Assembly: GCA_963705305.1 (NCBI GenBank)
Contig: OY970067.1
Span: 864,001-928,000 of the forward strand
Length of the DNA: 64,000 bases
DNA from: an uncultured Methylomirabilota bacterium
GTDB lineage: Bacteria > Methylomirabilota > Methylomirabilia > Methylomirabilales > 2-02-FULL-66-22
Reading direction: 5' to 3'
A program made the position numbers and the translations under genes. Position 1 is the first letter of the stretch. Every line of letters starts with the position of its first letter. This document shows, piece by piece, positions 5,755 through 39,391 of the stretch. The notes under the pieces were generated by a model that did no database searches, was not told where the DNA came from, and saw nothing but the letters and a program-made list of their open reading frames with translations.

Positions 5755-6028
5755 GGCCCGAGAGTGACCGTATGCCGGGCCGGGAGTGTTACCGGCCGAT
5801 CTGAGGGCGGGAGGCCGGGATGACCCGCGAGCCTGTCGGCGGCAACCCGGTCGCCGGAAGCACGCCTGCCCGCCTAATCCGCTGGTCGGCCTTCCGAACT
5901 GAATCCGCAGACGATCGACCGAGTCGGCGAGCCCCGCGGGCGTGCCTGGAGCCTGGACAGGTGGCGCTGAAGTCGGTCGGGGCGTGCAGGCAGAGGGTGA
6001 GGGAGGCGACCCGCACCCGGGCGCTGCG

Positions 6029-6862
6029 TCACTGCAAGAGCGTCTGGGGATCTCCGGCCAGCTCGACGTCGCCTTTGGCAGAGGCGAAGGCGTAGTGACT
6101 CAGGCTGGATCGGCGGAAGTCGCAGATCAGCTGCTCGAGCCGCCCAAGGTCATAGTGGGTGATGAATTCCTTGTACTTCCGATGGCGGAGGTAGGCCACT
6201 GCGAGGCGCAGCATCTCGTATCGCTCATACCGCAGCGTTGCCGTCAGCTGCGTCTTCCGATCACGGACGTAAGCCGACAGGCGGTCAAGGTCAATCCGAA
6301 TGCTGCTGAAGCCGAAGTCGATCCGTTTCCACAGCGAGCACATCTCCCCCGACTGGAGACTCTCCGGATACTGATGCACGACATTCTGGGAGACGCGCGC
6401 GTCGTCGGCGTCGGTCGTGTCGTACCCCAGGTCGACCCCGGCACTCGCGAAGTGCTCGACGAACGGGTTCCAGTCGCGGAGGATGACGGGGTCGTTCCCG
6501 CCGGGTTGCAGCCAGGAGAAACCGTCGCGTCCGAAGGCCCACTCGTACAGGTATGCCTCGCGCGGTTCCCGCTCGCCGCCACTGAATGAGCCCAGGACGC
6601 GGGGCACGTGGGCAAACACGTAGACCCCCGACCGGTAGAAAAAATCGTCCAGTTTCTTGGCGACGAGGTGGCGGATGAACATCTCGTGGCCGACGAACGG
6701 GGCTTGGTTGTACTCGATCCGGAGGGCGGAGGCCACGCCTTCCTGGGTCACGATGGTCCCCCCCAGTCCCGGAAACCGCGTCCGCAGCTCCATGATGATC
6801 CGCGCTTCGCTGCCGGCACCCGCCTCGCGAATGGGCTCGACGACTCCGTCTTGGAGGGTCAT
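6029..6862 (-). CDS. Hypothetical protein, possibly kinase-like fold
   Basis: 277-aa ORF with normal composition and GGAG RBS; YLYEWAFG, D..QNVV and RIDFG motifs. Confidence 0.7.
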   Translation of the reverse strand: MTLQDGVVEPIREAGAGSEARIIMELRTRFPGLGGTIVTQEGVASALRIEYNQAPFVGHEMFIRHLVAKKLDDFFYRSGVYVFAHVPRVLGSFSGGEREPREAYLYEWAFGRDGFSWLQPGGNDPVILRDWNPFVEHFASAGVDLGYDTTDADDARVSQNVVHQYPESLQSGEMCSLWKRIDFGFSSIRIDLDRLSAYVRDRKTQLTATLRYERYEMLRLAVAYLRHRKYKEFITHYDLGRLEQLICDFRRSSLSHYAFASAKGDVELAGDPQTLLQ

Positions 6863-6952
6863 CTGACGATCTCCTCTGCACCAGAGGGGACGTTGCCAAC
6901 TTCAGCACATTGCCCGTACCGACCGCACTGCACTTCCGCCGGCCCCCCCCTG

Positions 6953-7435
6953 TCAACCGCGCTTCCGGTGGGCCTCTCGGTGCGCCAGGCTTACCTTGAC
7001 CACGACCTTGTGCAAGTCGTGCGGGCCCTGATAATGGCACATGGGCAGGTGGGCTTCCTCGGGGAAGAACACCGCAAAATGGGCCGGATGAATGACCAGC
7101 CGCCGGTAATTCTCGGGCGCGGCGTAGAACACGATGTCCTTGGCCGCATCGTACGACGTCACGACCTGGAGGCCTTCGACCGGGGCCAGGCCGATGATCT
7201 CTTCCCCCGACACCAGGTACTGGATGTCGATGTAATCCCGGTGGGACTCGAACTGTCCCTCCTCGGGGGCGCGGGAGGGAGATCGCATGACCATGGCGTA
7301 CACGGCGTCGCCTAGGATCTGATGCTTGCCCGGCGGCAGACTGCCGAGAACGCTCTTCTCCAGAAACTCGAACCCGGCCTCCAGCCCCTCGATCCCCTGG
7401 AGGCCCCGCCACGCGTATATCGACCCCTGAATCAT
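6953..7435 (-). CDS. YhcH/YjgK/YiaL (DUF386) family protein
   Basis: FESHRDYIDIQY...GEEII, FAVFFPEEAHLP, KVVVKV. Confidence 0.9.
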   Translation of the reverse strand: MIQGSIYAWRGLQGIEGLEAGFEFLEKSVLGSLPPGKHQILGDAVYAMVMRSPSRAPEEGQFESHRDYIDIQYLVSGEEIIGLAPVEGLQVVTSYDAAKDIVFYAAPENYRRLVIHPAHFAVFFPEEAHLPMCHYQGPHDLHKVVVKVSLAHREAHRKRG

Positions 7436-7470
7436 TCTCATCCTCCCGCGTCTGCAGACCCCCTGCACCC

Positions 7471-8616
7471 CTACACGTTAATCGGATATCCGCCGAGGTC
7501 CCGTGCCGCGTCGAACATGGCCACAATGTTCTCCGGCGGGACGTTGGCCTGGATGTTGTGCACCGAGCCGAAGACGAACCCGCCGCCGGGCGCCAGGTCG
7601 TGGATGCGGCGCTTGACGTCCTCCACCACCTGGGCAACCGTCCCCGTCCCCATGACGACCGGGTCGCAGCCGCCGCCCCAGAAGGTCAGGTCTTTGCCGA
7701 ACTCCCGCTTGAGCCGCGCCGAGTCCATCTCGGCCGCGTTGACCTGCACGGGGTTCAGGATGTCCAGCCCGACCTCGATGAGATCCGGAATCAGGCGGTA
7801 GATGGAGCCGCAGGAGTGGAGATACACGCGGGCCTTGGTCCGCTGCTTGATGGCCGCGACGAGCTGCCGGAGCCGGGGCTTGTAGATCTTCCGGAAGGTG
7901 GCGGGGGCCATCATCGGCCCGTGCTGGCTCCCCAGGTCCTCGTTGAGCTGGACCACGTCCACATAGGGCCCCACCCGGGCCAGGACCATGTCCCAGTAGG
8001 CGATCTGCCATTCCATGATCCGCTGGGTGAAGGCCTCCATGAGCGGCTGGCTGCCGGCCAGGTTCATGAACGCCTGCTCCAGCCCGAACATGTACCAGGA
8101 ATGCTCCCACAGTCCGGGCATGGCCCCGCACATCATGATGACCTTCTCGCCCGCCTCGAAGGCCGCCTTCACCTGTTCGGGGACGCCCGCGATGCGGGCC
8201 GGGTCGGTCGGATTCGGCCAGCGGTACTTCTCGAGGTCCGCCTCCGACTCGGCCTCGGGCAGCGGCACGGCCGCCATGTCGTAGTAGTAGCCGCCGGGAG
8301 GCATATGGTAGGTGGTGCCCCACTCGTCCACGTAGGAGTTGGTGGCGGGATCGATCCTGAAGACGTAGCCGCTGGGAGGCTTCGGGAAGAACGCCGCGCT
8401 GACCCGCTCGAAGCGCTGCAGGAGCTGCGGGTCGGGATCCACCAGGTAGGTGTGGTAGCTCCGGATGGCGGGCTCCGGCCCGCGGAGGCCGAGATGCTTC
8501 ATCAGCGCCTGGTGGGCGGCGAAATGGAGCGTCGTCTGACGGCCGCCGAAATCCAGGGGCACCCGGTCCGGCTCGTGATGGTCGAGGGCGGCCAGCGCCC
8601 GCTGCCGACAGTTCAT
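7471..8616 (-). CDS. Uroporphyrinogen decarboxylase/MtaA-CmuA superfamily protein
   Basis: EPDRVPLD, DEWG, EDLG, YLHSCGS, LNPVQ, GGGFVFGSVHNIQ. Confidence 0.88.
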   Translation of the reverse strand: MNCRQRALAALDHHEPDRVPLDFGGRQTTLHFAAHQALMKHLGLRGPEPAIRSYHTYLVDPDPQLLQRFERVSAAFFPKPPSGYVFRIDPATNSYVDEWGTTYHMPPGGYYYDMAAVPLPEAESEADLEKYRWPNPTDPARIAGVPEQVKAAFEAGEKVIMMCGAMPGLWEHSWYMFGLEQAFMNLAGSQPLMEAFTQRIMEWQIAYWDMVLARVGPYVDVVQLNEDLGSQHGPMMAPATFRKIYKPRLRQLVAAIKQRTKARVYLHSCGSIYRLIPDLIEVGLDILNPVQVNAAEMDSARLKREFGKDLTFWGGGCDPVVMGTGTVAQVVEDVKRRIHDLAPGGGFVFGSVHNIQANVPPENIVAMFDAARDLGGYPINV

Positions 8617-8663
8617 CGTGGGTCCCCTCCCGGACGCGGCGGCGAGGGCCGGCACGCCGCCCG

Positions 8664-9410
8664 TCATCGCGTGAAGATCGCGCCCCGCACGTAGTCGGCG
8701 TCGGGCGAGGCCAGGAAGGCCAGGATGCGGGCCACGCCCATGGGATCGCCCGCCTCCCTGACGGCCTCGGCCCGGGCCTGCTCGAGGTCGCGGCCGGCGG
8801 CCCGCGCCCGGTCCACCAGGTTCTCGATGCGCATGGGGGTGGCGATGCTGCTCGGACAGACCTCGTTGACCCGGATGCCGTGGGGGGCGAGCTGCGCCTC
8901 CAGCGTCATGGCGAACCCATGCACGCCCCCCTTGCTGGCGCCATAGGCCAGAGACGAGCTGGGGATCTTGGTGCCGGCCTCCGAGGCAAAGAGCAGGACC
9001 ACGCCCTTTTTGGCCTTGCGGAGGTGCGGCAGCGCCGCCTTCACGGTCAAGAAGGCGCCCTTCAAATTCACGTCCAGGACGCTCTCGAAGGTGGCCTCCT
9101 CCAGCGCATCGGCCTGGAGCATGGCGCCCTTGAGGATCCCGGCGCAGCAGATCAGCACGTCCAGCCGGCCGCACCGCTCTACGGCCGCCGACGCCAGCCC
9201 TACGCAGTCCTCCTCGCGACGGACGTCGGTCCGCACAAAGGTCGCCTCGCCGCCGGCCGACCGGATCTCGGCCGCGACGGCCCGGCCCTCCGCCTCTAGC
9301 ATGTCGCCGAGGACGACCTTCCCTCCCTCGGCGACGACGGCTTTGGCGGTGGCCGCCCCGATCCCCCGCCCGCCGCCCGTGATGACCACCACGCGGCCTT
9401 CCAGGCGCAT
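8664..9410 (-). CDS. SDR family oxidoreductase
   Basis: TGGGRGIG, CAG, YGASK catalytic motif, IRVN. Confidence 0.92.
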   Translation of the reverse strand: MRLEGRVVVITGGGRGIGAATAKAVVAEGGKVVLGDMLEAEGRAVAAEIRSAGGEATFVRTDVRREEDCVGLASAAVERCGRLDVLICCAGILKGAMLQADALEEATFESVLDVNLKGAFLTVKAALPHLRKAKKGVVLLFASEAGTKIPSSSLAYGASKGGVHGFAMTLEAQLAPHGIRVNEVCPSSIATPMRIENLVDRARAAGRDLEQARAEAVREAGDPMGVARILAFLASPDADYVRGAIFTR

Positions 9411-9454
9411 GCGCGTCCTCCGATCTCCCTTCATTCCCTCGGCCGCGGGTTTCA

Positions 9455-9628
9455 CAAGGTGCTGGGAAACTACCGTTCGACGAGGCCGCTCAAAAAGGCT
9501 CAGATGCAAGGCGCCGCGCCGGGTACCCATCCGTGAGGATGGGTGCAGGCGCGAGGCGTACTCCGCGCGTACGGCGCAGCGCCGCGGGAGCGCGGCAACG
9601 AAGCAGATGGGCCTTTTTCAGCAGCCTG
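9455..9628 (-). mobile_element. MITE copy 1 (IS5-like ends, decayed outer end)
   Basis: Minus strand begins CAGGCTGCTGAAAAAGGCCCATCTGC directly after the TGA stop at 9629; alignable along its length to the copy at 33741. Confidence 0.75.
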
Positions 9629-10267
9629 TCAGGCGTCCACGGTCACCAGCGGCAGCATCCGCTGGAGGAGCGCTTCGGCCCGCACCGGGTTGTAGATCCC
9701 GCAGTGACAGGGCCGGGTCAGCTCCAGGCCCGCCTCTCGCACCGTCTTCTTCCCCCGCCTGATCTCGGCCAGCATCCGCTCGACCAGATTGGCCGGAACC
9801 ATGCCGTGCCCGCACATGGTGGTCAGCTGGAGGACCTCGTCCGCCGGCAGCTTCCTGTACTGGCCGAAGATGCCCAGGGAATTCTCCACCGTGTGCTTGG
9901 CGAGGCCGCTCTCGCGGCAGCCCTTCTCGGTCTCCTCGTGGATCCCCGTGACCACCACCGACATCCCCAGATCGGCCTCCTTCAGCTCCGCGAGGATCTT
10001 GACCACCTCCGCCTCGTCGGTGAAGACCCCATGGACGATGGAGGTGCTCTGGATGTTCCCGAGGATCTCTTCCCGGGACTTGACGTGACAGTTCCCCGTC
10101 ACCATGTCTCCGTAGTTGACCGGCCGGTGGCGCAACAGGATGCCCAGGAACTGCTTCATCCGCTCGGCCGAGCCCTCCTCATTGAGTCCCTTGGCCGACA
10201 TGGTGAAGACGATGTAGTCCTGGCTCAGGCTCTCCCGATCCCCCCGGCGGTGCAGTGTATGCGTCAC
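9629..10267 (-). CDS. Hypothetical His/Cys-rich protein
   Basis: GTG start with AGGAG RBS; THTLHR, KHTVE, TMCGHG, CHCGIYN motifs; co-oriented with the Fe-S genes. Confidence 0.8.
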   Translation of the reverse strand: MTHTLHRRGDRESLSQDYIVFTMSAKGLNEEGSAERMKQFLGILLRHRPVNYGDMVTGNCHVKSREEILGNIQSTSIVHGVFTDEAEVVKILAELKEADLGMSVVVTGIHEETEKGCRESGLAKHTVENSLGIFGQYRKLPADEVLQLTTMCGHGMVPANLVERMLAEIRRGKKTVREAGLELTRPCHCGIYNPVRAEALLQRMLPLVTVDA

Positions 10268-10289
10268 CCCACTCCTCCTCGACCAGTCG

Positions 10290-11033
10290 TCAGACGGCGG
10301 CCAGCGGTCTCCCCAGGCCGACGTTGCTCTTCCCGTTAATGGAGAGGAAGCGGCCGCGCCCCTGGATTTCCCGCACGTAGGGAACGGAGCCGTCCTCGCC
10401 GACCCGGCTGATGATGTCCCCGGAGAACACGGTGTCGATCTCCTGCGAAACGCGGTCCAGGACTTCCAGGACCTCTGGCAGCCGCTCGATCGGGATCATG
10501 AACTCCACGATGGCGGACAGCACCTTCTCGTCGAGGACCTCGGGGTTGATCCGCCCCTGTGCCCGGTCCACCATGAGCTTCGTGACCGGATTGTTCTCCT
10601 CGAAACTGATCCCCAGCCTGGCCAGCGCCATGGCCACCTTCTCCACATCGCGGAACCGGGTCCCCACGCCGGGCCGGCCCAGCTCGCAGGCCATGCCGTA
10701 CTTCCCCCACCGGTACCGGCCGGTGACCTCGTTGGTCTTCATCTCTTCCGTGCCCCGGCCCGGGATACGGGTCTCGGGGTGAATCTTCAGCGGGTCGCTG
10801 AAGTTCTTCCGCACCGTCCTCGGCCAGACCAGCTCGGGCTGGTACAATGCCTCGGTGGGACAGCAGCCGCTCCGCAGGCAGACGCTGCACTCCACGCACT
10901 CGTCCTCGTCGATCACGTAGGTGATCCGGGTCGGGTTCTTGGGGTCCCGCTCGAAGTGCATGATCCCGCCCAGCATGGTGCAGTACGAGCGGCAGCTGCC
11001 GCACCCGATACACTTCTCAGGATCGATTCTCAC
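10290..11033 (-). CDS. 4Fe-4S dicluster protein with uncharacterised C-terminal domain
   Basis: CIGCGSCRSYC and CVECSVC...CCP; GTG start overlaps the upstream stop (GTGA). Confidence 0.87.
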   Translation of the reverse strand: MRIDPEKCIGCGSCRSYCTMLGGIMHFERDPKNPTRITYVIDEDECVECSVCLRSGCCPTEALYQPELVWPRTVRKNFSDPLKIHPETRIPGRGTEEMKTNEVTGRYRWGKYGMACELGRPGVGTRFRDVEKVAMALARLGISFEENNPVTKLMVDRAQGRINPEVLDEKVLSAIVEFMIPIERLPEVLEVLDRVSQEIDTVFSGDIISRVGEDGSVPYVREIQGRGRFLSINGKSNVGLGRPLAAV

Positions 11034-12340
11034 TGCCGCATCCCTCCCAGCTCCCTCGCCCGGCACGCGCCGCCCATCGCGTACAGTCGCGGCCGGAACG
11101 AGATCCCCCGCTCCACGTCCCGCGCCAGCACCCCGGCCGAGACCTCGGTGCGGTTCTTCACCAGGGCGGTCAGGACCCCCGCGCAGCGCACGTCGCCCAA
11201 CAGCAGGAAGCCGTCCAGGCGCCCGCCCGCGCAGATCAGCTTCCGGTAGAGCGGCCTGTCCTTGTCCATGGTCGTGAGCGCCTCTCCCCCCTCCCAGAGG
11301 CCGGCGGAGATCACCCGCACCCCCAGGATCTCCACCGAGTTCATGCGCAGCGCACCCGAGAACGTCGCCGGCACGCCGGCCATGTTCAGGCCTGCAATCC
11401 GGCCCCCCTCGGTGGCCGAGGGCCAGATGGCGCTGGGGAGATTCTTCCGCTGGAGGACTTCCAGCGGCTCGGCCACGTCCCCGGCGGCGAAGATCCCCGG
11501 GACGCTCGTGCTCATGTGGTCATCCACGATCACGCCCTGGCTCAGGATCACACCCGTGTCCCGCAGGCAGCCGACGTTTGGGTCCACCCCCTTGCCGATG
11601 ATGGCCAGCTCGCACGGAAGCTGGCTCCCGTCCGACAGCGAGACTCCCTCCAGTCGCTCCCGCCCATGAAACGCGGTGACGTCGCTGTGAAAGTGGACCC
11701 GGACCCCGTTCCGCTCGAACGCCCGCAGGAAGAAATCGGAAGCCGTCCGGTCCAGCATCTGGGACAGGATCCGGTCGGAGGAGATCACCAGATGGACCGC
11801 CTTCTTCCTGCCGACCATGGCCTCCAGGCTTTTCACCCCCACCAACCCGCCGCCCACGATCACCACCGGCCCGCGCGTTGTGCGCGCCGCCTTCTTGATC
11901 GCTTCGGCGTCCACGATCTTGCGGAGCGGGAAGACGCCCGCGAGCTCCTTGCCCGGCACCGCCAGCAGCCGGGAGGACGAGCCGGTGGCCACCAAGAGCC
12001 GATCGAAGGGCAGGCTCTTGCCGCGGCCCAGATGGACCTGCCGCCCGCGGGGATCCACCCCCTCGGCCGCGATACCCTGGAGCAGCCGGATGCGCTGCGC
12101 GGCGTAGAACCCTCGGGGAGCGAAGACGAGATCCTGCTTGGTCTTCTTCCCAGCGATGTAGAGGGGCAGCATAGCCCGGGAATAGCCGAAGAGCTTTTCG
12201 TCCGAGACGATGGCGATCTGCCCGTCGGGATCGTGCCGCCGGATCTCCTGGGCGGCCGCGGTCCCGGCCACGCTGTTCCCCAGGATGACGTATCGAACCG
12301 GCTGCCTCTGCCGTGTCGTCGGCTTCATCTGGCTATCCAT
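11030..12340 (-). CDS. FAD-dependent NAD(P)H oxidoreductase (NirB/rubredoxin reductase-like)
   Basis: ILGNSVAG, LLVATGS, VGGGLVG, TSVPGIFAAGD. Confidence 0.9.
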   Translation of the reverse strand: MDSQMKPTTRQRQPVRYVILGNSVAGTAAAQEIRRHDPDGQIAIVSDEKLFGYSRAMLPLYIAGKKTKQDLVFAPRGFYAAQRIRLLQGIAAEGVDPRGRQVHLGRGKSLPFDRLLVATGSSSRLLAVPGKELAGVFPLRKIVDAEAIKKAARTTRGPVVIVGGGLVGVKSLEAMVGRKKAVHLVISSDRILSQMLDRTASDFFLRAFERNGVRVHFHSDVTAFHGRERLEGVSLSDGSQLPCELAIIGKGVDPNVGCLRDTGVILSQGVIVDDHMSTSVPGIFAAGDVAEPLEVLQRKNLPSAIWPSATEGGRIAGLNMAGVPATFSGALRMNSVEILGVRVISAGLWEGGEALTTMDKDRPLYRKLICAGGRLDGFLLLGDVRCAGVLTALVKNRTEVSAGVLARDVERGISFRPRLYAMGGACRARELGGMRQ

Positions 12341-12375
12341 GCCTCGTCTCGTGCGCCGGAAATCTCTTGACGTTT

Positions 12376-12483
12376 CGTCACCCCGGCGAACGCCGGGGTC
12401 CAGGAATACGGTCTGACTGGATTCCGGCTTTCGCCGGAATGACGGAACGGCAGCTCTGGATGCCGGCGTTCGCCGGCATGACG
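12376..12483. repeat. Triplet of 28-bp palindromic REP-like repeats (+,-,-)
   Basis: CGTCACCCCGGCGAACGCCGGGGTCCAG (12376-12403), CTGGATTCCGGCTTTCGCCGGAATGACG (12417-12444), CTGGATGCCGGCGTTCGCCGGCATGACG (12456-12483). Confidence 0.9.
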
Positions 12484-12519
12484 CCCCCGCGCAACTGCGG
12501 AAGCGTTGGAGGCATCTGC

Positions 12520-14073
12520 CTAGCGGGCGCCTCCGGCCGCCAGCATGGCGGCCAGCTCCTCGGCCTGTTCCCGCGGCTCGGGCAGCACCGGCCCCGCCAA
12601 AAGCCTGCCCCCCGTGATCCGCTGCCATTCGGCCGGCAGGACCTCGGCGAGCCACGGGCTTCCCCAGAAGGGCAGCCGGACCCCGATCTGCACCGTGAGT
12701 CCCAGCGCGAACAGGCCGACCGCGCTGGCCCAGGTGGCGGCCCGCGAGAATTCCGGGAAGGCCGCGACCGCCGGGGTGCCGCCATTCCTCCGGGGCAGAC
12801 CGAGCAGCAATGTGACCACCTGGGGAAGCTGGAAGGCGGAGCCGAAGGCGACGATCGGCTGGAGCCCGTCCTTCCCGAGTTCTGCGGCAAAGGCGGCCAG
12901 CCGGCCGCCCGTCCGCTTGTCCAGCTCGGCGGCCAGCGCCTCGGCGTGGGCCCCCAGGTCTCCGCCCAGCAGGATCGGGGCCTTCGCCCCCACCGCCGCC
13001 TCCATCAGGGCCAGCGTGCGCTCGAAGAATGTTTGCTTGGCGTTGCTCTCTCCCATCAGGACCGCCACCCCGCGGATCCGGCCCGCCTCCAGCGCGCCCG
13101 CGAGTGCGTGCGCCGGCGGCAGGGCCAGGCTGCCGGCGCCGGCCTGGAGCCGACGCGACGTGGTCCCGTAGAAGGCGTTCTGGGCGTGATGGGCCGCCTG
13201 GTCGATCACCTGGGCGGCCGTCCGGTCGAAGGGCGCTCTCCCGTCCACCAGGAAGGCGGGCACCCCGTACTTCGCCGCCAGCATCTCCAGCCCAGGCCAG
13301 CCAGCGTTGGGGGCGAGGATCAGCGCGTCCACGTTCATCCCTAGCGCCAGCTCCGGCGAACCGTAGTCGGCAGCCGCCAGGGTGAATGGCAGCCGGCCGC
13401 CCCCCTGCATGAACAGGTTGACCTTCCGCCCCTCCGCCCGCAGTCCCGCCTGATCGAAGGCCCGGACGAGTCCCTCGGGGGCCTGCCCGACGATCAAAAG
13501 GTTGATCCCGCCCGGATCGAACGGCAGACCTGCCTCGCTGCGGGCGAGCCCCGCGGCCGCCTGGCACAGCAGGCCGTACTGGATCAGGCCCAGCCGGGCC
13601 AGGTCCTGGAGGGTCTGGACCAGGTAGCCCTTGTGCGAGAAAAAGCCGTTCTGCACCGAGAACAGGTCCGCCTTCCGGACCGGGAGGAGTCCCGCTTTGG
13701 TCAGGCCCTCCGCGGTCGCCGCGGGCAGGGCGGCGGCCAGATCCGGAAGCTCCTGGCCGGCCCCGGCGATTCCCAAAAGCTGCACGGCCCGGGCCGACTC
13801 CAGCACGCCTTCCAGGGTTGCCTGGAAGAGGGTCTCCATGACGATCTGGTCCCGGTCGGCCCCGCAGGTCCCCTGGCTCGGCTCGTCCCCGAAGGGATTG
13901 ATCCGGCACGGCCCCTGGAAGCACTTCCGGCAGCTCAGGCCGTTGCTGGTGAAGGCGCAGAGCGGCAATTGCCGCTCGTAGCGCTCCCAGGAGAGCTGCG
14001 CCCCGAGGTCGTGTGCCGCCAGCAAGAGGGGAGACGTGTCCGCCAGTGCGCTCTTCTTGTGAATTCGATCCAT
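12520..14073 (-). CDS. CooS (Ni-CODH)-like protein lacking C-cluster ligands
   Basis: N-terminal WERYERQLPLCAF...SCRKCFQGPCRINPFG...TCG matches the CooS D/B-cluster region; C-terminal IRGVAVLMG and AAFPE segments follow the CooS layout; only one Cys after the N-terminal cluster region. Alternative start at 14148. Confidence 0.82.
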   Translation of the reverse strand: MDRIHKKSALADTSPLLLAAHDLGAQLSWERYERQLPLCAFTSNGLSCRKCFQGPCRINPFGDEPSQGTCGADRDQIVMETLFQATLEGVLESARAVQLLGIAGAGQELPDLAAALPAATAEGLTKAGLLPVRKADLFSVQNGFFSHKGYLVQTLQDLARLGLIQYGLLCQAAAGLARSEAGLPFDPGGINLLIVGQAPEGLVRAFDQAGLRAEGRKVNLFMQGGGRLPFTLAAADYGSPELALGMNVDALILAPNAGWPGLEMLAAKYGVPAFLVDGRAPFDRTAAQVIDQAAHHAQNAFYGTTSRRLQAGAGSLALPPAHALAGALEAGRIRGVAVLMGESNAKQTFFERTLALMEAAVGAKAPILLGGDLGAHAEALAAELDKRTGGRLAAFAAELGKDGLQPIVAFGSAFQLPQVVTLLLGLPRRNGGTPAVAAFPEFSRAATWASAVGLFALGLTVQIGVRLPFWGSPWLAEVLPAEWQRITGGRLLAGPVLPEPREQAEELAAMLAAGGAR

Positions 14074-14168
14074 CGCTCTCCAGCCCTTTCCCGAAAGGAT
14101 GTCCGGATCGTTACCCGTGGAGGAATACCGCGCGGTCGAGCCACCCATTCGCACTCCCTCGCGGGAGT

Positions 14169-14696
14169 CTATGATTTCGTCAGCCCCTTCGCCGCCGTGA
14201 AGTCCAGCCCTGTCAGCCTGGCCCCCTTGCGGACCGGCACCGCTCCCCGGGCGACCTCCTCCGGATCCAGGAACACCAGGGCGCCGGTGGGGCAGCTCTC
14301 GACGCAGAACGGCGCGCTCATCCCGGTGCACTGGTCGCACTTGAACATCTTCCGGAAGCTGCGAAAGGGCTGGGGTGCCCCGAATGGGCACACCATCACG
14401 CACATCCAGCAGCCGATGCACCGCTCGTCGTTGACCAGGACCAGCCCACCGTCCTCTCGGTACAGTGCCTTGGCAGGGCAGGCGTCCAGGCAGGGCGCGT
14501 CCTGACAATGGCGGCACTGCACGGGGAAGCCGTTCTCGGTGCCCGTATCCTCCACCCGCACCCTGGCCAGAGGGGCGGGGTTCTCGTAGATCGCTTCCGG
14601 CAGGCTCTTGCTCAACGAGCCCCGGTTCAGCGCGCAGGCGATTTCACAACTCTTGCACGCCACACACCGCTCTGCGTTCACGAAGATGGATTTCAT
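14169..14696 (-). CDS. cooF: CooF/DmsB-like 4x[4Fe-4S] electron-transfer protein
   Basis: CVACKSCEIAC, CRHCQDAPCLDACP, CIGCWMCVMVCPFG, KCDQC...CVESCPT; adjacent to the cooS-like gene. Confidence 0.85.
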   Translation of the reverse strand: MKSIFVNAERCVACKSCEIACALNRGSLSKSLPEAIYENPAPLARVRVEDTGTENGFPVQCRHCQDAPCLDACPAKALYREDGGLVLVNDERCIGCWMCVMVCPFGAPQPFRSFRKMFKCDQCTGMSAPFCVESCPTGALVFLDPEEVARGAVPVRKGARLTGLDFTAAKGLTKS

Positions 14697-14788
14697 GGTC
14701 CTCCTCGAACCCGATTCCTCCGAAGGCATCCCCCGCCTCTTCCCGCCGCCGGACGGGGGGAAAGTTCTCGCCGCCGACCGCCGTCCCG

Positions 14789-15976
14789 TCAGAACCGCGA
14801 CTCTTGCACGTAGATGTCGATGGGCTCGGAATAGGTCAACGTCTCGCTGCGGGACAGGGTGCCCGAGGCGACGTCCAGGGCCGTCCGGTAGAGGCGTTCG
14901 CCGGCCGCCTCCGGGCTCTCGGAACCCTCGATCACCGTGCCCGAGTAGAAATCGATGCTGTCGCGGGCGGCCGCGTAGGTATGCGGGTTGGCCGTGGTCC
15001 AAAGGAAGGGCGCCACCACCGACGGGGAGCCTTCCAAGAGCGTCCGCCCGGCCACGCCGCCGCCGCCGAGCTGAAACAGGACCAGGTTGGCTCCCGCCGC
15101 GGCGTACCCGGCAAAGATGGAGAGATGGCCCATCCAGTTGTCCACGAAGTAGAGGCCCTTTCCACCCGGCCGCTCGGCGTACTTCAGCACGCCCCGGATC
15201 GGCGCCGTCCCCGCCTTGTGGATCGCCCCCAGGCTCTTCTCTTCCAAGGAGCTGAGCCCCCCTTTAATGTTGGAGGGCACCGGGTTCACGGTGCGGATGT
15301 CCAGGCCCGTGGCCTTGGCCAGCGCCTCCCGGCGGGCCGCCGCATCCAGGATGGCCTGGGCCACCTGCGGCGTGGCGGCGCGCCGCGCCAGCGCCTGCTC
15401 GGCCCCGATGATCTCGGTCGTCTCGCCGAACAGCGCCGTGCCGCCCGCGGCCACGACCTTGTCGTAGAGATAGCCCACGGCCGGGTTTCCGGCGATGCCC
15501 GAGGTGGTGTCGGAGTACCCGCACTTGACCCCCAGGCACAGATGCTCGTCCCCGACCGGCTCGCGCCGCAGCCTGGAGGCCTCGTACACCAGCGTCCGGG
15601 CCAACTGGATGCCCTTGACGATAGCCCCGTAGGTGCCCCCGTCCCTGGCTGGATCCACCACCTCCACCCGCTTCTTGGCGTCGGCGATCTCGTCGGCCAG
15701 CCGCTCCACCGCGAGCTCCGGGTAGCCCACGCCGGGGCTGGCGGCGTGCAGGATCACGGCGGCCACGTTGGGGTTCCTCCCCAAACCGATCAGCACGCGG
15801 GCGATCGTCTCCCGGTCACTGGCGGTGCGGCCGGAGCCGTGGTCGGCGGTGACGATCGTCTTGGTTCCGGCCACGAAATCGCAGATGGACTTGGAGATGA
15901 CCCCCTGCGGCAACACCAGGACGTAATTCCGGGTGCCGACGGATCCGTCGGACCGGACGTAACCCAGAAAGCTCAT
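14789..15976 (-). CDS. UxaA/GarD/SuyB family dehydratase or lyase, large subunit
   Basis: GYVRSDGSVGTRNY, NPNVAA, KCGYSDTTSG...NPAVG, GETTE, NIKGGLSSLEEKSLG. Confidence 0.87.
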   Translation of the reverse strand: MSFLGYVRSDGSVGTRNYVLVLPQGVISKSICDFVAGTKTIVTADHGSGRTASDRETIARVLIGLGRNPNVAAVILHAASPGVGYPELAVERLADEIADAKKRVEVVDPARDGGTYGAIVKGIQLARTLVYEASRLRREPVGDEHLCLGVKCGYSDTTSGIAGNPAVGYLYDKVVAAGGTALFGETTEIIGAEQALARRAATPQVAQAILDAAARREALAKATGLDIRTVNPVPSNIKGGLSSLEEKSLGAIHKAGTAPIRGVLKYAERPGGKGLYFVDNWMGHLSIFAGYAAAGANLVLFQLGGGGVAGRTLLEGSPSVVAPFLWTTANPHTYAAARDSIDFYSGTVIEGSESPEAAGERLYRTALDVASGTLSRSETLTYSEPIDIYVQESRF

Positions 15977-16281
15977 CCCCTGCCGCTCCTTTCCAGGTCG
16001 CCGCGGGCGCGCATCCCTTCCAGGTTGTGGATGTGGACCAGCGCCCCCTGCGGGATGTGGACCCCTGCCCTGCCGATGGGCTCCCCGTACTTCCGGATGA
16101 CCGCGCCCCGGGCGATCTCCTCCAATGCGATCTTGAATCCGAACGGGATCAGCTCGCAGGCCTGGACCGTGAGTGAGCCCGGTCCTGCCGGCACCGCAAC
16201 CTCGTCTCCCGCCCGGATCTCCTCCATAGCCGTGGCCACGTTGTCGGAAGGATGCATGATCAGCGCGCGTTTCGCCGCCAT
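15973..16281 (-). CDS. UxaA/SuyA family SAF-domain small subunit
   Basis: DNVATA, IPFGFKIAL, KYGEPIG, VHIHN; 4-nt overlap with the large subunit. Confidence 0.88.
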   Translation of the reverse strand: MAAKRALIMHPSDNVATAMEEIRAGDEVAVPAGPGSLTVQACELIPFGFKIALEEIARGAVIRKYGEPIGRAGVHIPQGALVHIHNLEGMRARGDLERSGRG

Positions 16282-16450
16282 GGCTCCCCGTCCTCCTTCA
16301 CGAAGGCTGTCACAACAATCCGTCCGCCGCCAACCCGCAGAGAGTCTATCCGTCGCGGCGGCCCTCTCCTCCACCCCGAGCGCCGGGTCGCCGGCGAGAA
16401 TGGGCATGCCCTCTGACACGGCCGAGGCCGCGGCGTCCGCACACCGCTCC

Positions 16451-16480
16451 AGCATGCCTCGTGGCGCGGAGGCTTGTCAA
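16451..16480 (-). promoter_or_regulatory. Putative sigma70 promoter of the uxaA-cooF-cooS-like operon
   Basis: Minus strand TTGACA-N18-CATGCT. Confidence 0.4.
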
Positions 16481-16529
16481 CGAGAAGGCCGGGAAGGTGT
16501 GGAAAAGAGGTCGAAATCGAGCCAACCGC

Positions 16530-17174
16530 TCACTTGGCGCGGTAGCCGACCAGGCCCGCCTCCAGGGCGCGCCGGTCCACCCGGCTGAGGCTCTTTTCCA
16601 TGGCGGCGGTCAAGATGCGCGTGTGCGGGATATCCACCAGATAATCCGGGATGAACCAGAGATCGTCCTCGCTGGTCATCCAGCCCGGATGTATCCCGTC
16701 GAAGCGGCCGAGATTGACCGGGCGGGAATAGGCGCGCAGGGTCCGGTCGCCCCGCAGGTTGATGTAGTCCTCGAAGTAGCTCATCGCCAGCTCGCGCAGG
16801 CTCCGGTAGACCGGGGCGCGGAAACGCAGGCCCGAGAAGTTCGACTTGGCAATGGCGCCCCAGTGGCCGTTCCGGCGGTAGACGGCGATGACGTGATCCG
16901 TGTCCTGCACCGCCTCCAGATCCAGCAAGAGCGGCGGGTAGCCCAGGGCGCGCAGCGCGGCGGCGGCAAAGATGGCCCCCTCCAGGCAGTGGGCCGTCCC
17001 CGCGCGAAGCACCCGCCGCGGCGACCATGCCGTCTTGGCCAGGTGGTAGGGCATGGCGTCCAGCATCCGCTGGATCCCCACCGGCGAGCGCAGGGCCTGC
17101 AGCCGCCGGAGCTCCCGCCGGGTAAACCCACCCGCTTGCACCAGCCTGGGGGACGTTGCGACTTTATTGACCAT
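16530..17174 (-). CDS. Hypothetical protein, transglutaminase-like Cys/His motifs
   Basis: AHCLEGA, DHVIAVY, WGAIAKSN; GGAAGGA RBS before ATG 17174 (alternative start 17207). Confidence 0.75.
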   Translation of the reverse strand: MVNKVATSPRLVQAGGFTRRELRRLQALRSPVGIQRMLDAMPYHLAKTAWSPRRVLRAGTAHCLEGAIFAAAALRALGYPPLLLDLEAVQDTDHVIAVYRRNGHWGAIAKSNFSGLRFRAPVYRSLRELAMSYFEDYINLRGDRTLRAYSRPVNLGRFDGIHPGWMTSEDDLWFIPDYLVDIPHTRILTAAMEKSLSRVDRRALEAGLVGYRAK

Positions 17175-18144
17175 ATTCCTTCCCAGGTCCGCACCCCTCA
17201 CGATCATTTACTCCCCCTGGGGGGATCGAGGCCGGGGCTGTCTTGGACGGCAGCAGCACGGTGGAAAGAGAGGCCACCACCAGGAGCAGCGCCACGAAGT
17301 CGGACCAGTGGGGCGTCTCGCCCAGGAGCAGCATGCCGCTGAACACCCCCACCACGGGGACCATCATGACCGCGAGGCTGGAGACGCCCACGGGGGCCAC
17401 CAGAGCGATCTTCATCCAGGCCCAATAACAGAAGATGAAGGCCACGAAGACGTTGTAGAGGATGCCCAGCAGCGGCCAGACCGACAGCGCAAAGGGGCTG
17501 AAGCTGCCCGGCTCCAGAAAGAGGGCGGCGGCGAGGATGGGGACGACGGCGACGGCCATCTGCCAGGCCGTGAAGGAGGTCACCGGCAGATGGACGGGCC
17601 AGCGCTTCATGATGACGGTCCCCAGGGCCCAGGAGACTGCACCCCCGATGACGAAGAGCGCCCCCAGCGGCGCCTCGCCGAAGGCGGCGAGCTCGTTCGC
17701 CAGGAGGAGCAGCATGCCCGAGAAGCCGAGGACGACCCCGACCACTCGCCGCCGGGTGAAGGGCTCGCCGAGAAGCCAGGCGGAGAGCATGACGCCCCAC
17801 ACCGGCATGGTGTAGCCCAAGATCGCGGCCCGTCCGGACGCCATCAGGCGGACGCCGTAGATCACTAGCACGTTCCAGCCCATCATGTTGACCAGCCCGA
17901 TGAGGATCATCCGCGGCCACTGGCCCTCCGGCACCTGGAGGCGGTGGCCGTCGATCCGGGCGATGGCGAACAGGCCCAGGGCGCCGAAGAGGAGGCACGC
18001 CGTCCGGAAGTGCATGGGCCCCATCTCCGACAGGACCACCTTCATCACCGGCCAGTTGAACCCCCAGCCGAGAGTCAGACCCACCAGCAAGCCGAGAAGG
18101 TGGCCGGGAAACGTGTGGGCGGAGGCCTGATCGTTCTTTTCCAA
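17164..18144 (-). CDS. DMT/EamA family transporter
   Basis: About 10 hydrophobic segments; WGFNWP, LLGEP, LLLGET; probable TTG start after GGAGAG. Confidence 0.87.
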   Translation of the reverse strand: MEKNDQASAHTFPGHLLGLLVGLTLGWGFNWPVMKVVLSEMGPMHFRTACLLFGALGLFAIARIDGHRLQVPEGQWPRMILIGLVNMMGWNVLVIYGVRLMASGRAAILGYTMPVWGVMLSAWLLGEPFTRRRVVGVVLGFSGMLLLLANELAAFGEAPLGALFVIGGAVSWALGTVIMKRWPVHLPVTSFTAWQMAVAVVPILAAALFLEPGSFSPFALSVWPLLGILYNVFVAFIFCYWAWMKIALVAPVGVSSLAVMMVPVVGVFSGMLLLGETPHWSDFVALLLVVASLSTVLLPSKTAPASIPPGGVNDREGCGPGKEYGQ

Positions 18145-18361
18145 GGAATCTCTCCAAAGCTCCTGGTCGTCCGGCGGCTGCCCGCCAGCCGCCGTCCGGG
18201 CGGCAGCATGCGCGGGGATCTCCCAATTGTCAAGCCAGAAGCGCGCCGGCGGCGGGTTGACCGCCGGCCCGCGGCAGGGAACGCCCCGCCACGCCCGGCA
18301 GCGCTCCCCCGACTTGTGGGGGACGGCCTGCCCCGCGAAGGGGCGTCCTCCCCCCTGCCCC

Positions 18362-18390
18362 TTGACACCATGCGGCCCATGGGATATAGA
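18362..18390 (+). promoter_or_regulatory. Putative sigma70 promoter of the NitT/TauT ABC operon
   Basis: TTGACA-N17-TATAGA with a CCATG-N5-CATGG palindrome in the spacer. Confidence 0.45.
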
Positions 18391-18435
18391 GCTAGCCCGG
18401 GCCGGCGGGCCGCCGTCCGGGCATAAGGATTGCTC

Positions 18436-19275
18436 ATGAGTTTCCGCTCCGCCCCCACCATCAATGCAGGCGCCCCCGCGGCATCGAAGCGCCTGCGCCG
18501 GCTCCTTCGCAGCCAACGCGTCCTGGTGAGCTTTGTCCTGTTGTTCTTTCTGTGGGAGGGTGCGGTCCGACTGTTCCGCGTCCCCTCCTATTTGCTGCCC
18601 CCTCCGTCCGTCATCGCGCTGGATCTCCTGGCCCGCTGGAGCCGCGTGATGCAAAACACGCTCATTACGACGCAGGAGATCGTGGCGGGATATCTCGCGG
18701 CGGTGCTGATCAGCATCCCGCTCGCGCTGCTGATCGCCCATTCCCGCTTCATGGAAGAAACGGTCTATCCCATCATCGTCTTTTTCCAGATCGTGCCGAA
18801 GATTGCCATTGCGCCCCTGTTCATCATCTGGTTTGGATTCGGCTTCACTCCCAAGCTGCTGCTGGTATTCCTCCTGTCGTTCTTCCCGATCGTGGTCAGT
18901 AGCATTGCCGGTTTCAAGTCGGTGGACGCGGAAATATTAGACCTGGCTCGCTCCACGGGGGCGAGCCCGTGGATGATGTTCCGCAAGATCCGGCTGCCGT
19001 ACGCGCTGCCAAGCATCTTCACAGGGCTCAAGGTTGCCGCCGCGCTCTCGCCGACGGCGGCCGTGGTGGCCGAGTTCGTGGCGTCGGACAAGGGGCTAGG
19101 CTACCTGCTGCTGGAATTCAATGGAAACCTCAATACCTCCATGGTGTTTGCCACAATCGTCGTGCTGAGCATCGTGGGCCTGCTTGTCTACTACGCGGTG
19201 GAACTGATCGAGCGGATCCTCATCCCCTGGCATGTCACGACGCAAAAGGAGACTCGGAACGCGGACTATCTGTGA
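18436..19275 (+). CDS. NitT/TauT family ABC transporter permease
   Basis: LPPPS, PKIAIAPLFIIWFGFG, VVAEFV...GLG. Confidence 0.92.
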   Translation: MSFRSAPTINAGAPAASKRLRRLLRSQRVLVSFVLLFFLWEGAVRLFRVPSYLLPPPSVIALDLLARWSRVMQNTLITTQEIVAGYLAAVLISIPLALLIAHSRFMEETVYPIIVFFQIVPKIAIAPLFIIWFGFGFTPKLLLVFLLSFFPIVVSSIAGFKSVDAEILDLARSTGASPWMMFRKIRLPYALPSIFTGLKVAAALSPTAAVVAEFVASDKGLGYLLLEFNGNLNTSMVFATIVVLSIVGLLVYYAVELIERILIPWHVTTQKETRNADYL

Positions 19276-19453
19276 GCCGCCAGCCGGAGTGCGAGGGTAT
19301 TGCCGGCCCCTCCCGCGGGCGGCCCCTGCGCGGTGAGGCCGCCCCCTTGCGGACACGCACGGCAGCGGGTACATCGCGTCCGGCGCCGCCGCGCCTGCCG
19401 GCGGACGGCGGGGAAACCGGCTGTTCTGGCGCCACGAGAGAGGAGGAGCACCG

Positions 19454-20437
19454 ATGCGACGCCTCGTCCTGTTCGCAACAAGCGCACTGACCTTGGCTGC
19501 GCTCCTGGGAGCCGGCGGCCCCGCCGCCGCGGCCGATGCGGTCTCGCTGCGGCTGAACTGGTATCTGGGCGGCCTGCACGCGCCGTTCTACCTCGGCGTG
19601 GAGCGCGGGTACTACCGGGACGAGGGCATCGACCTCTCCATCAATGAGGGGCGGGGATCCCCGGCCTCGGTCCAGATCGTCGGCGCCAAGGGGGACACGT
19701 TCGGCATGTCCGATGCCGGCAGCCTGATGCTGGGGGTGACCAAGGGCGTGCCGATTCGATCGGTGTTCTCGCTGCTCAGCAGCTCGGACTTTGCCATCAT
19801 CTCCCTGGAGGAGCGGGGGATCAGGTCCGTCAAGGACCTGGAGGGAAAGAGCATCGCCGGCTCGGCCGGGGACGGGCCCACGCAGCTCTTTCCGGCCGTC
19901 TGCGAGACCAACGGGGCGAACAAGGACAAGATCAAAGTGGTGTTCATGGATCCGCCCGCCAAGCCGGCGGCCGTAATGGAAAAGAAGGTCGACGCGCTGC
20001 TGGGGGGCGCCAGCGACCAATATTGGCTCATCAAGTACAAGGGGTTCAGGCCGACGGCATTGAAGTATGCGGACCTCGGCGTGGACACGATCGGCATGAC
20101 CATCGCTGCCCACCTGGACACCCTCCGGGAGAAGCCCGACATGGTGCGGCGATTCGTCAAGGCGACGATTCGCTCCTGGGAGGCCGCGCAGAAAGAGCCG
20201 GCGGCGGCCGTGAAGGCGGCGCTCAAGGTCAAGCCGGATCTGAACGCCGCCTCCACCGAGGACCAGCTGCAGACGAACCTGCGCGAGCTGTTCTCAAAGA
20301 ACTCGCAGGGCAAGGCCATCGGCTATTCCGCACCGCTGGACTGGGAAAACACCATGGAGCTGCTCAAGAAGTACCGCGGGCTGCAGACGGACAAGCCGGC
20401 GACTTTCTTCTACACGAACGACTTCATGCCCAGATGA
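19454..20437 (+). CDS. NitT/TauT (NMT1/THI5-like) ABC substrate-binding protein
   Basis: Signal peptide; LRLNW...HAPFY...GYYRDEGIDL, KDLEGK. Confidence 0.9.
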   Translation: MRRLVLFATSALTLAALLGAGGPAAAADAVSLRLNWYLGGLHAPFYLGVERGYYRDEGIDLSINEGRGSPASVQIVGAKGDTFGMSDAGSLMLGVTKGVPIRSVFSLLSSSDFAIISLEERGIRSVKDLEGKSIAGSAGDGPTQLFPAVCETNGANKDKIKVVFMDPPAKPAAVMEKKVDALLGGASDQYWLIKYKGFRPTALKYADLGVDTIGMTIAAHLDTLREKPDMVRRFVKATIRSWEAAQKEPAAAVKAALKVKPDLNAASTEDQLQTNLRELFSKNSQGKAIGYSAPLDWENTMELLKKYRGLQTDKPATFFYTNDFMPR

Positions 20438-20520
20438 TGAGGCCAGGCTCGCCGGATCGTTCAGGGCCGTTAGCTCCGAGGGAGCGCCGCGCGCCCCTCC
20501 GTTCCGCGCAGAGGTGACGC

Positions 20521-21372: not shown

Positions 21373-21376
21373 CGTC

Positions 21377-22324: not shown

Positions 22325-22352
22325 CAGCACACCTTCACCGGGGGTCTTTTCG

Positions 22353-25847: not shown

Positions 25848-26039
25848 ATAGACGCACGGGTCGACGGAGATGATCCGAGCCGCGGGTCGCTCCGTCAGTC
25901 TGATCTCCGACACCGGGTCCGGTTTATCCGCCGGCGTGGGCACGCTCGATCTTGCGTCAACGGGGAGTGATCCTCCTTGCCCGCGGGAAGGCTGCTCCGC
26001 TCTGGATGCGTAGGTCGGGCCCTGAAGAGGAAAGCGCTG

Positions 26040-39038: not shown

Positions 39039-39066
39039 TGTCATTCCGGCGAAAGCCGGAATCCAG
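39039..39066 (+). repeat. REP-like palindrome upstream of the GIY-YIG gene
   Basis: TGTCATTCCGGCGAAAGCCGGAATCCAG. Confidence 0.9.
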
Positions 39067-39093
39067 TGAAGTCCGAGTTCAGACCCTGAGGCT

Positions 39094-39387: not shown

Positions 39388-39391
39388 GGGG

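Follow-up and report, generated by a model that had tools for sequence, protein, structure and literature searches.

The locus described here raises the question of what role is left to a protein of the carbon monoxide dehydrogenase (CODH) family once the residues that hold its catalytic cluster are gone, and of what is done by the two proteins without a known family that are encoded beside it. The locus lies on the minus strand of a 64,000-nucleotide (nt) stretch of contig OY970067.1 (assembly GCA_963705305.1) from an uncultured Methylomirabilota bacterium; this whole stretch, with a G+C content of about 68%, is called the window, and positions are counted from its first letter. Between 6953 and 16281 it carries ten co-oriented open reading frames (ORFs) with high third-position GC, numbered G1 to G10 in the order of transcription: the two subunits of a split dehydratase (G1, G2), a CooF-like polyferredoxin (G3), the CODH-like protein (G4), an FAD/NAD(P)-dependent oxidoreductase of the FNOR type (G5), the two proteins in question (G6, G7) and three further genes (G8-G10). 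A preliminary description had read these genes as one catabolic redox operon, in which a CODH-type electron-transfer set links NAD(P)H to two uncharacterised metalloproteins, perhaps handling the sulfite released by a lyase of the SuyAB type. The ten co-oriented genes that it claimed, with their named domains, were recovered in Pfam and NCBIfam searches; its gene list needed amending in that '9629-11033' comprises two genes, G6 and G7, and in that the URO-D-like gene was missing from its title. The explanation preferred here, which we regard as evenly poised between right and wrong, is that G6 and G7 form an undescribed heterodimeric Fe-S oxidoreductase that is wired to NAD(P)H through G5, G3 and a G4 devoid of its C-cluster, and that most likely acts as the reductase of a small carboxylate.

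A conserved five-gene module and its CODH-like protein

Gene order was compared in 80 loci (L001-L080) that were fetched by their CODH-like protein from one genome per species and comprise 16 loci of the G4 family and 64 others, genes being called from our own ORF picks in combination with tblastn and Pfam. The order CooF-like protein, CODH-like protein, FNOR, G6 and G7 was kept in 14 of the 16 G4-family loci, the contig ending in the other two. The CODH-derived electron-transfer set of the preliminary description (a CooF-like protein, a CODH-like protein without C-cluster and an FAD/NAD(P) oxidoreductase) is accordingly found together with both uncharacterised proteins across phyla, and the absence of such synteny from other genomes, which was to count against the proposal, is not seen for G3 to G7. 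Across the G4-family loci G6 (64-89% identity) and G7 (58-86%) are the best-conserved genes of the module, with 53-79% for G3 (L002-L016) and a lower 30-67% for the CODH-like protein. Among the 64 other loci the pair was found in three, each time adjoining a short CODH-like gene (L029, Chloroflexota; L043, Clostridia; L066, Acetobacteraceae), and it was found in none of the 61 loci with a canonical CODH, 25 of which are accompanied by CooF-like and FNOR-like genes. In one locus (L011, 9116-12867) the CooF-like, CODH-like and FNOR genes were each matched in two tblastn pieces, with G6 and G7 intact; the split matches suggest frameshifts, caused by decay or by an assembly error.

Similarity of G4 to known families is concentrated in its first ~90 residues, which match CO-dehydrogenase/Prismane models: the Pfam Prismane match is confined to profile positions 2-44 of 513, and the CooS model TIGR01702 scores 83.3 bits against a cut-off of 478, with residues 20-89 as the best-scoring stretch. 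For the assignment of cluster ligands, 93 CODH-family ORFs from the fetched loci were aligned and a tree was computed with FastTree on 547 columns. The six C-cluster ligand columns were defined by the 57 canonical ORFs, all of which read HCCCCC, and presumably correspond to His261, Cys295, Cys333, Cys446, Cys476 and Cys526 in the numbering of Carboxydothermus hydrogenoformans CODH-II. At these columns G4 has Q, G, A, E, D and A. It keeps the four B-cluster cysteines (C48, C51, C56 and C70), aligned to the canonical columns, and C39 of the D-cluster, the second D-cluster position being Ser. The label 'pseudo-CooS' of the preliminary description is therefore apt, the B-cluster being kept, the C-cluster gone and one of the two D-cluster cysteines gone. 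An alignment of 18 members of the G4 family shows C39, C48, C51, C56 and C70 in all 18, and no further invariant Cys or His. G4 is the sole Prismane-family match in its genome (98.9% complete), with no other CODH or HCP homologue. Metagenome searches gave 206 matches to G4, of which the best 120 are 46-68% identical to it and 425-556 residues long; pipelines have named such relatives 'hydroxylamine reductase', 'CODH' or 'hypothetical'.

In the tree, the 34 CODH-like proteins linked to G6/G7 form one clade with a support of 1.0 and no outsider (the contig of L010 stops before G6/G7 could appear). None of the six C-cluster ligands is kept by 26 of the 34, which lack Cys and His at five or six of these columns and consist of one subclade of 25, including the window, plus L176. 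Seven basal members of 438-518 residues keep four or five ligands, reading H-CCCC in L066, L125, L126, L137 and L172 and S/N-CCCC in L043 and L029, so that the second C-cluster Cys is missing alone or together with the His; in L136 and L176 the ligands are partly or wholly degenerate. As L176 adjoins the ligand-bearing L172 in the tree, the C-cluster ligands were lost at least twice. All sequences of the tree come from the fetched loci.

In its three-part path the module resembles the Ni-CODH gene sets with CODH, CooF and FNOR of two surveys (Inoue et al., 2019, PMC6344411; Inoue et al., 2022, PMC8776680), in which a B-cluster-bearing member of the CODH family is likewise joined by a polyferredoxin of the CooF type and an FAD/NAD(P) oxidoreductase. 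It differs from them in the shortness of the window G4 (517 residues), in its zero of six C-cluster ligands and single D-cluster Cys, and in the presence of G6 and G7. A short CODH-family protein beside a cooF gene is also the arrangement given for Mini-CooS and clade G (PMC3328121; PMC8776680), and the basal linked members are similarly short. However, Mini-CooS is stated there to keep all cluster residues (Techtmann et al., 2012, PMC3328121), whereas the window G4 keeps none of those of the C-cluster. The 2019 survey left out matches shorter than 550 residues and cluster-motif deletions (PMC6344411), and a 2026 gene-context study in eLife dropped clades G and H and required the key clusters (PMC13056359); being short and cluster-less, the clade of the window would therefore be expected to escape these surveys. 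No description of a cluster-less CODH or of the G6/G7 pair was found in the literature searched, although the supplementary tables of PMC6344411 and PMC13056359 may list such sequences.

A second likeness is to phenylglyoxylate:NAD+ oxidoreductase, in which a catalytic subunit is likewise combined with a polyferredoxin, an FAD subunit and NAD(P): the top NCBIfam match of G5 is PadH (247.4 bits, cut-off 475), and G3 matches part of PadI (68 bits, cut-off 700). Both scores are below the cut-offs, G6/G7 are neither a 2-oxoacid:ferredoxin oxidoreductase nor a tungstopterin enzyme, and the CODH-like protein is extra. The tungsten-containing aldehyde oxidoreductase AorABC is a comparable NAD-linked Fe-S complex.

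What stands around the five genes varies. The split dehydratase genes flank the module only in the window and in L004 and L005, two genomes of the same genus, and lie 9 kb away in L110; UxaA-type genes thus accompany the module in 4 of the 50 loci of at least 8 kb, three of them from one genus, and the tie between the module and a split UxaA/SuyAB-type lyase that the preliminary description had drawn is not supported. An orthologous module was found in six genomes of the genus, three of them with UxaA in front; the others have PrpD, a second G6/G7 pair and TRAP genes (L097), TTT genes (L001), or AOR (aldehyde:ferredoxin oxidoreductase), GntR and TRAP genes (L012, in which the G4 and G5 orthologues abut with zero gap). 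An orthologue of the short-chain dehydrogenase/reductase (SDR) gene G8 follows G7 in L005 only, and the SDR, URO-D-like and YhcH genes are not conserved with the module. The ten genes together are therefore peculiar to this lineage, assembled around five that are conserved as a module, and do not make up one conserved pathway.

This variation bears on the strongest alternative, namely that the ten genes are not one unit at all and that three unrelated blocks (the dehydratase, the five-gene module, and the SDR, URO-D-like and YhcH genes) lie side by side, which we consider a possible if rather doubtful account. Besides the flanks that change within the genus, it is favoured by the intergenic distances. 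Two pairs of genes, at 15973/15976 (G1/G2) and 11030/11033 (G5/G6), share 4-nt stop/start overlaps, as had been noted earlier; the gaps otherwise measure, in transcription order, 92, 95, 179, 22, 218 (between G7 and G8), 47 and 35 nt, and those of 92, 95, 179 and 218 nt would separate the blocks. On the other side, all ten genes are on one strand, the three loci with UxaA all have the SAF, GD_AH and CooF-like genes next to one another, and a terminator scan gave no site in the intergenic gaps inside 6953-16281, two minus-strand sites there falling within coding sequence. One terminator-like site was found just upstream of the cluster (16527-16509). The yield of the promoter and terminator scan is no better than chance, with 2 promoter-like sites for 0.7 expected and 8 terminator-like sites for 5.7 expected. 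With gaps of the sizes given above, more than one transcript across the ten genes is possible. The block account concerns the flanks, and it is compatible with the preferred explanation of the module, in which G6 and G7 are the oxidoreductase that G3 to G5 serve.

The G6/G7 pair and its neighbours

Neither G7 nor the C-terminal domain of G6 gave a Pfam match, even at E-values up to 10, or an NCBIfam match. Profile searches against PDB sequences returned only ferredoxin-domain matches for G6 and a single match with an E-value of 1.7 for G7, the ESM Atlas held only unnamed or '4Fe-4S binding' clusters, and a comparison of G7 with the G6 C-domain in hhalign gave no sign of homology. The predicted models are ferredoxin-like alpha/beta sandwiches (mean pLDDT 65 for G6 and 80 for G7), and fold searches with Foldseek and VIA-align retrieved generic sandwiches only (best Foldseek E-value 0.02; best Z 6.9 and 7.3); such generic matches to predicted models do not demonstrate new folds for the two proteins. 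That the C-x-H...C-x-C pattern of G7 may be a BFD-like [2Fe-2S] domain is a tentative lead, Pfam giving no Fer2_BFD match.

G7 belongs to a large family. It has 779 relatives in a 90% collection and 880 representatives at 50% identity, all of them unnamed, and nearly all of the latter are 200-230 residues long and align from residue 1. Conserved in the G7 alignment are the N-terminus (T2, L5, H6, R7, G9), C117, H125, C152-G-H154 and C187-x-C189. In 16 sequences of G6, 66 columns are invariant, among them W-P-R, F-S-D-P, G-R-G-T-E-E-x-K-T-N and a C-terminal K-x-N-x-G-L-G. In the 103 loci compared, 97 copies of G7 have enough sequence in front of them for another gene, and in 93 of these G6 is the gene next upstream; 16 more copies have no such room. 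Longer relatives of G7 were not found by a word-index search, and an exhaustive profile search found three: P0386 is a natural fusion of G7 followed by G6 (42% identical to G6, E-value 4e-61), P0259 is a fusion of G7 with a CooF-like domain behind it, and P0256 has a Fer4 motif after G7. G6/G7 occur in Methylomirabilota, Thermodesulfobacteriota, Syntrophaceae, Acidobacteriota, Chloroflexota, Clostridia and others.

Co-folding of G6 with G7 gave an ipSAE of 0.91, compared with 0.06 for the best control, a mark reached by 116 of 157 solved complexes and by 2 of 215 mismatched pairs (rough counts, for which custom alignments were used). The runs agreed in at least 91% of contacts, with a partner pLDDT of at least 89, and G6 and G7 are thus predicted to bind each other. 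On the G7 side the predicted interface consists of the conserved N-terminus and the C-x-H and C-x-C motifs, and on the G6 side of the GRGTEE-KTN loop and parts of the ferredoxin domain. As it gathers conserved motifs of both proteins together with parts of the G6 ferredoxin domain, this interface is as expected for an active site fed by the clusters of G6.

The company kept by the pair was examined in 79 metagenome loci (L101-L179) that were fetched by G7; they represent the closest 80 of 518 relatives, are biased to the subfamily of the window and include 28 loci of at least 8 kb. Of these 28, 17 carry G6/G7 without the module and 11 have a CODH-like gene near G7; TRAP or TTT transporter genes are near G7 in 13, AOR in 6, and a thiamine pyrophosphate (TPP) enzyme of the Oxc/HACL type together with an Frc-like CoA-transferase in 3. 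Across all 50 long loci, TRAP or TTT organic-acid transporters are present in 21, GntR in 11 and AOR in 8. Several arrangements recur: AOR immediately upstream of G6 (L145, L161, L166, L168); HpcH aldolase, a small ORF, AOR, G6 and G7 (L155, L164); TPP enzyme, G6, G7 and CoA-transferase III (L131, L132, L146, and similarly L135 and L144); tandem G6/G7 pairs behind TRAP genes (L151, L159, L160); LarA-like and GlcD-like genes after the pairs (L152, L160); and a PdxA-like gene near the pair (L151, L169). In L138 (7688-12109) the order FdrA-like, G6, G7, AllG (a subunit of oxamate carbamoyltransferase) connects the pair with a gene set of the oxamate/oxalurate type. In Syntrophaceae-type loci (L003, L006, L011, L110, L111, L114) a RACo-like ATPase gene follows G7 and a Lin0512-family gene precedes the CooF-like one. 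The RACo-like protein, a [2Fe-2S] domain with an ASKHA ATPase of the reductive-activator family (L003 14634-16586, L006 14497-16533, L011 14549-16492), hints at lineages in which the G6/G7 centre may depend on ATP-driven reductive activation.

The family is present in 52 of 251 genomes of the phylum and in 17 of 20 of the genus. The window genome has three G6/G7 pairs. For the two outside the cluster (L095, L096), no gene of the CODH-like, CooF or FNOR type is found up to a distance of 10 kb; their neighbours are a xylose-isomerase-like TIM-barrel gene, or TRAP, GntR, cyclase and SDR genes.

Such diverse neighbours, many of them ferredoxin-dependent (AOR, CODH-like, PFOR-like), could also be expected if G6/G7 were not an enzyme but a dedicated electron carrier or adaptor between ferredoxin-dependent enzymes (AOR or the CODH-like protein, for example) and other redox partners, or a factor for the assembly or repair of such enzymes. 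G6 does start with a plain 2x[4Fe-4S] ferredoxin domain, and no active-site-like similarity to a known enzyme was found. However, many of the invariant columns of G6 lie beyond its ferredoxin domain and contain Arg, Lys, Glu, Asp, Thr or Asn, and to these is added the invariant N-terminus of G7, a density of invariance that is unusual in a mere carrier and therefore disfavours this account. In L098, L151, L159 and L160 two or three diverged pairs follow one another behind transporter genes, in the manner of substrate-specific paralogues, and some pairs are without a detected ferredoxin-dependent enzyme in their locus (L133, L148, L095). A role as carrier or assembly factor is accordingly judged improbable.

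About equally improbable is a one-carbon role of the module, as its CODH ancestry would suggest, with formate, a formyl thioester, CO or CO2 as the unit that G6/G7 make or consume and with a CODH-like partner that once processed this unit and has decayed in the lineage of the window. The ligands kept by the seven basal members of the linked clade would fit this account, as would the five loci L131, L132, L135, L144 and L146, in which a TPP enzyme resembling oxalyl-CoA decarboxylase or 2-hydroxyacyl-CoA lyase and an enzyme resembling formyl-CoA transferase are encoded beside the pair or within ~3 kb; enzymes of the oxalyl-CoA-decarboxylase and formyl-CoA-transferase types make formyl-CoA and formate. 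However, these TPP and CoA-transferase matches are all below every equivalog cut-off, most of the contexts (TRAP/TTT, GntR, PrpD, UxaA, LarA, PdxA) have no obvious one-carbon step, and the window G4 and 25 relatives are without any of the six ligands, yet the synteny is kept.

Flanking genes and layout of the cluster

Please refer to Table 1 for the positions of the features and for the family matches that identify them.

Table 1. Genes and repeats of the cluster at 6953-16281 of the window, in the order of transcription.
Feature	Assignment	Position	Strand	Size and matches
G1	SAF-domain small subunit, split UxaA/GarD-family dehydratase	15973..16281	-	102 aa; Pfam SAF 21.6 bits (cut-off 21)
G2	Large subunit, split UxaA/GarD-family dehydratase	14789..15976	-	395 aa; GD_AH_C 228.1 bits, GD_AH_second 70.2 bits
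G3	CooF/HydN/DmsB-type polyferredoxin	14169..14696	-	175 aa; Fer4_11 62.8 bits (cut-off 26.2)
G4	CODH-like protein	12520..14073	-	517 aa; CODH/Prismane match at N-terminus only
Repeats	Three REP-like hairpin repeats between G4 and G5	12377..12482	.	fill the 179-nt gap
G5	FAD/NAD(P)-dependent oxidoreductase (FNOR / PadH-like)	11030..12340	-	436 aa; Pyr_redox_2 169.7 bits (cut-off 26.1)
G6	N-terminal 2x[4Fe-4S] ferredoxin domain and ~180-aa domain without known family	10290..11033	-	247 aa; only the Fer4 part matches
G7	Protein without known family	9629..10267	-	212 aa; no Pfam, NCBIfam or PDB match
G8	Short-chain dehydrogenase/reductase (SDR)	8664..9410	-	248 aa; adh_short 177 bits
G9	URO-D / MtaA-like TIM-barrel protein	7471..8616	-	381 aa; PF01208 75.6 bits (cut-off 23.9)
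G10	YhcH/YjgK/YiaL (DUF386) family	6953..7435	-	160 aa; PF04074 132.9 bits (cut-off 26.5), TIGR00022 112.7 bits (cut-off 45.5)

A GGAGG-like site precedes all genes with a checked start; the start of G5 was refined, and that of G10 was picked by GGAGG spacing. The translation of G3 contains 16 Cys in four CxxCxxCxxxC-type groups, as for four [4Fe-4S] clusters. NCBIfam searches gave no equivalog above the cut-off for G3 or for G8. An Rfam search of 6000-19500 gave no match. The 27-nt REP-like hairpin element of Table 1 (GTCAT-stem-loop-stem-ATCCAG type) has 10 copies in the window against 0.00 expected, at 12377-12482, 39040-39614, 47899-47925 and 49555-49581, which are intergenic and often form inverted clusters. 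Read in frame, the element gives 'PAFAGMT / RRKPES'-like peptides that inflate spurious ORFs. A search of sequencing runs listed no RNA run with this sequence and one DNA run with 0.24 of its words.

The dehydratase qualifies as a member of the UxaA/GarD family, with SAF in G1 (aligned to GarD model positions 4-79) and GD_AH_second and GD_AH_C in G2, which together span the SAF, second and C-terminal domains. It differs from GarD in being split into two genes and in its scores against the GarD equivalog TIGR03248 (149.8 bits for G2 and 31.7 bits for G1; cut-off 730.85). The only PDB sequence relative of G2, and the nearest solved one, is galactarate dehydratase 6u7l (E-value 8e-31). G10 scored 106.5 bits against the N-acetylneuraminate anomerase equivalog, below the cut-off of 160.

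G9 scored 47.1 bits against the MtaA/CmuA subfamily (cut-off 235.4), matches the methylcobalamin:CoM methyltransferase 4ay7 weakly in the PDB and contains an H-x-C motif, a putative Zn ligand. URO-D/MtaA-like paralogues number three within 39 kb, G9 (7471-8616) and those at 25977-27008 and 37773-38906, and no corrinoid-protein gene was seen among the ORFs scanned up to 39 kb. A reading of the system as corrinoid-dependent, prompted by the RACo-like proteins of six loci and the URO-D/MtaA-like protein here, was rejected, there being no B12-binding domain in any flank and RACo and URO-D never occurring in one locus. On the plus strand, 19454-23820 encodes an NMT1/SsuA-like binding protein (19454-20437), an ABC ATPase, a DHDPS-family aldolase or dehydratase and an OYE-type flavoenzyme, genes that may share an organic-acid catabolic neighbourhood with the cluster. 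Outside the window, the genome has 12 matches to the AOR family, 11 of them near full length (e.g. C1:755996-759868), which is an unusually large set for one bacterium.

It is very improbable that the operon degrades sulfolactate or a related sulfonate, with the UxaA-type protein as a SuyAB-like sulfo-lyase and with the redox module and G6/G7 handling sulfite by means of NAD(P)H: the two-gene SAF and GD_AH architecture of 102 and 395 residues would match that of SuyAB, and a weakly SsuA-like binding protein and an ABC ATPase are encoded 3 kb upstream on the other strand, yet the SsuA match scores 58 bits against a cut-off of 163.5, UxaA-type genes are rare beside the module, most G6/G7 pairs have carboxylate transporters, AOR or Oxc-like genes for neighbours, the TPP enzymes encoded by other pairs fall well short of the Xsc cut-offs, no siroheme, sulfite-reductase, Xsc-grade or sulfite-exporter domain was present in any flank scanned, and no sulfonate-pathway neighbours (Xsc, sulfite exporter, sulfolactate dehydrogenases) were seen in the flanks of the window to 39 kb. 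Nothing was found to support the handling of sulfite or sulfolactate that the preliminary description had put forward.

A proposed electron path and what it would mean

In the preferred explanation, with G6/G7 as an NAD(P)H-wired Fe-S oxidoreductase, NAD(P)H would bind to the FAD protein G5, and electrons would move on to G3 with its four [4Fe-4S] clusters, then to the B-cluster of G4 and to both [4Fe-4S] clusters of G6. Their destination would be a metal centre of four Cys (plus His) that G7 provides at its interface with G6, the site at which a small carboxylate would be converted. G4, as a CODH descendant without the Ni-Fe C-cluster, would serve as electron wire or scaffold only. G6/G7 would thus take low-potential electrons and apply them to a small hydroxy-, oxo- or enoyl-carboxylate. 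In the genus of the window the module has come to stand between a split UxaA-type sugar-acid dehydratase, which precedes it, and the SDR, URO-D-like and YhcH genes, which follow it, and the local substrate may be a product of the UxaA-type sugar-acid route. The cofactors, the order and direction of electron flow, the substrate and co-transcription are what we infer here, and the substrate class, derived solely from neighbouring genes, is the weakest step.

A reductase is somewhat favoured over a dehydrogenase, because the neighbours in every recurrent context (AOR, ligand-bearing mini-CODH, NAD(P)H flavoprotein) usually supply electrons; running AOR or CODH backwards to take up electrons from G6/G7 would be energetically demanding, which supports the same direction. 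Several points weigh against the proposal. Its direction is drawn from this neighbour argument, and the analogy with characterised modules of the CooF/FNOR type, which run from a low-potential donor to NAD(P)+, would favour the opposite one. The members of the G6/G7 families are without a known substrate, cofactor or activity, their best fold matches are only generic ferredoxin-like sandwiches (Z 6.9 and 7.3), and the co-fold score is a statement of model confidence and not a measurement. The heterogeneous neighbours could mean many substrates or a general role as electron carrier. Both locus sets are biased, L001-L080 by having been fetched with the CODH-like protein and L101-L179 towards the closest relatives of G7. 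The link to the UxaA, SDR, URO-D and YhcH genes is drawn from three genomes that, as relatives within one genus, do not count as independent, and the gaps of 179 and 218 nt may leave room for separate transcripts.

A wider scenario, which we offer as tentative and rather less probable than the proposal itself, is that G6/G7 are a new family of Fe-S reductases for small organic acids that first evolved as the electron sink of a mini-CODH. The G4 of the window would then be a fossil CODH, its Ni-Fe cluster lost in at least two lineages, that has been kept for hundreds of millions of years only as a wire, through its B-cluster, and as a scaffold linking NAD(P)H to the new enzyme. If this is true, the window would document that a CODH can be kept for a role other than catalysis. 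The series from ligand-bearing to ligand-less CODH in one syntenic module provides a testable case of a metalloenzyme demoted to a wire. The clade without C-cluster has gone unexamined in surveys and is nevertheless labelled automatically as 'hydroxylamine reductase' or 'CODH', and counts of CO oxidation in metagenomes that include such genes would be too high. G6/G7 themselves are a large, widespread and unnamed pair beside genes for organic-acid uptake, and probably mark an unrecognised step in the anaerobic or soil turnover of carboxylates.

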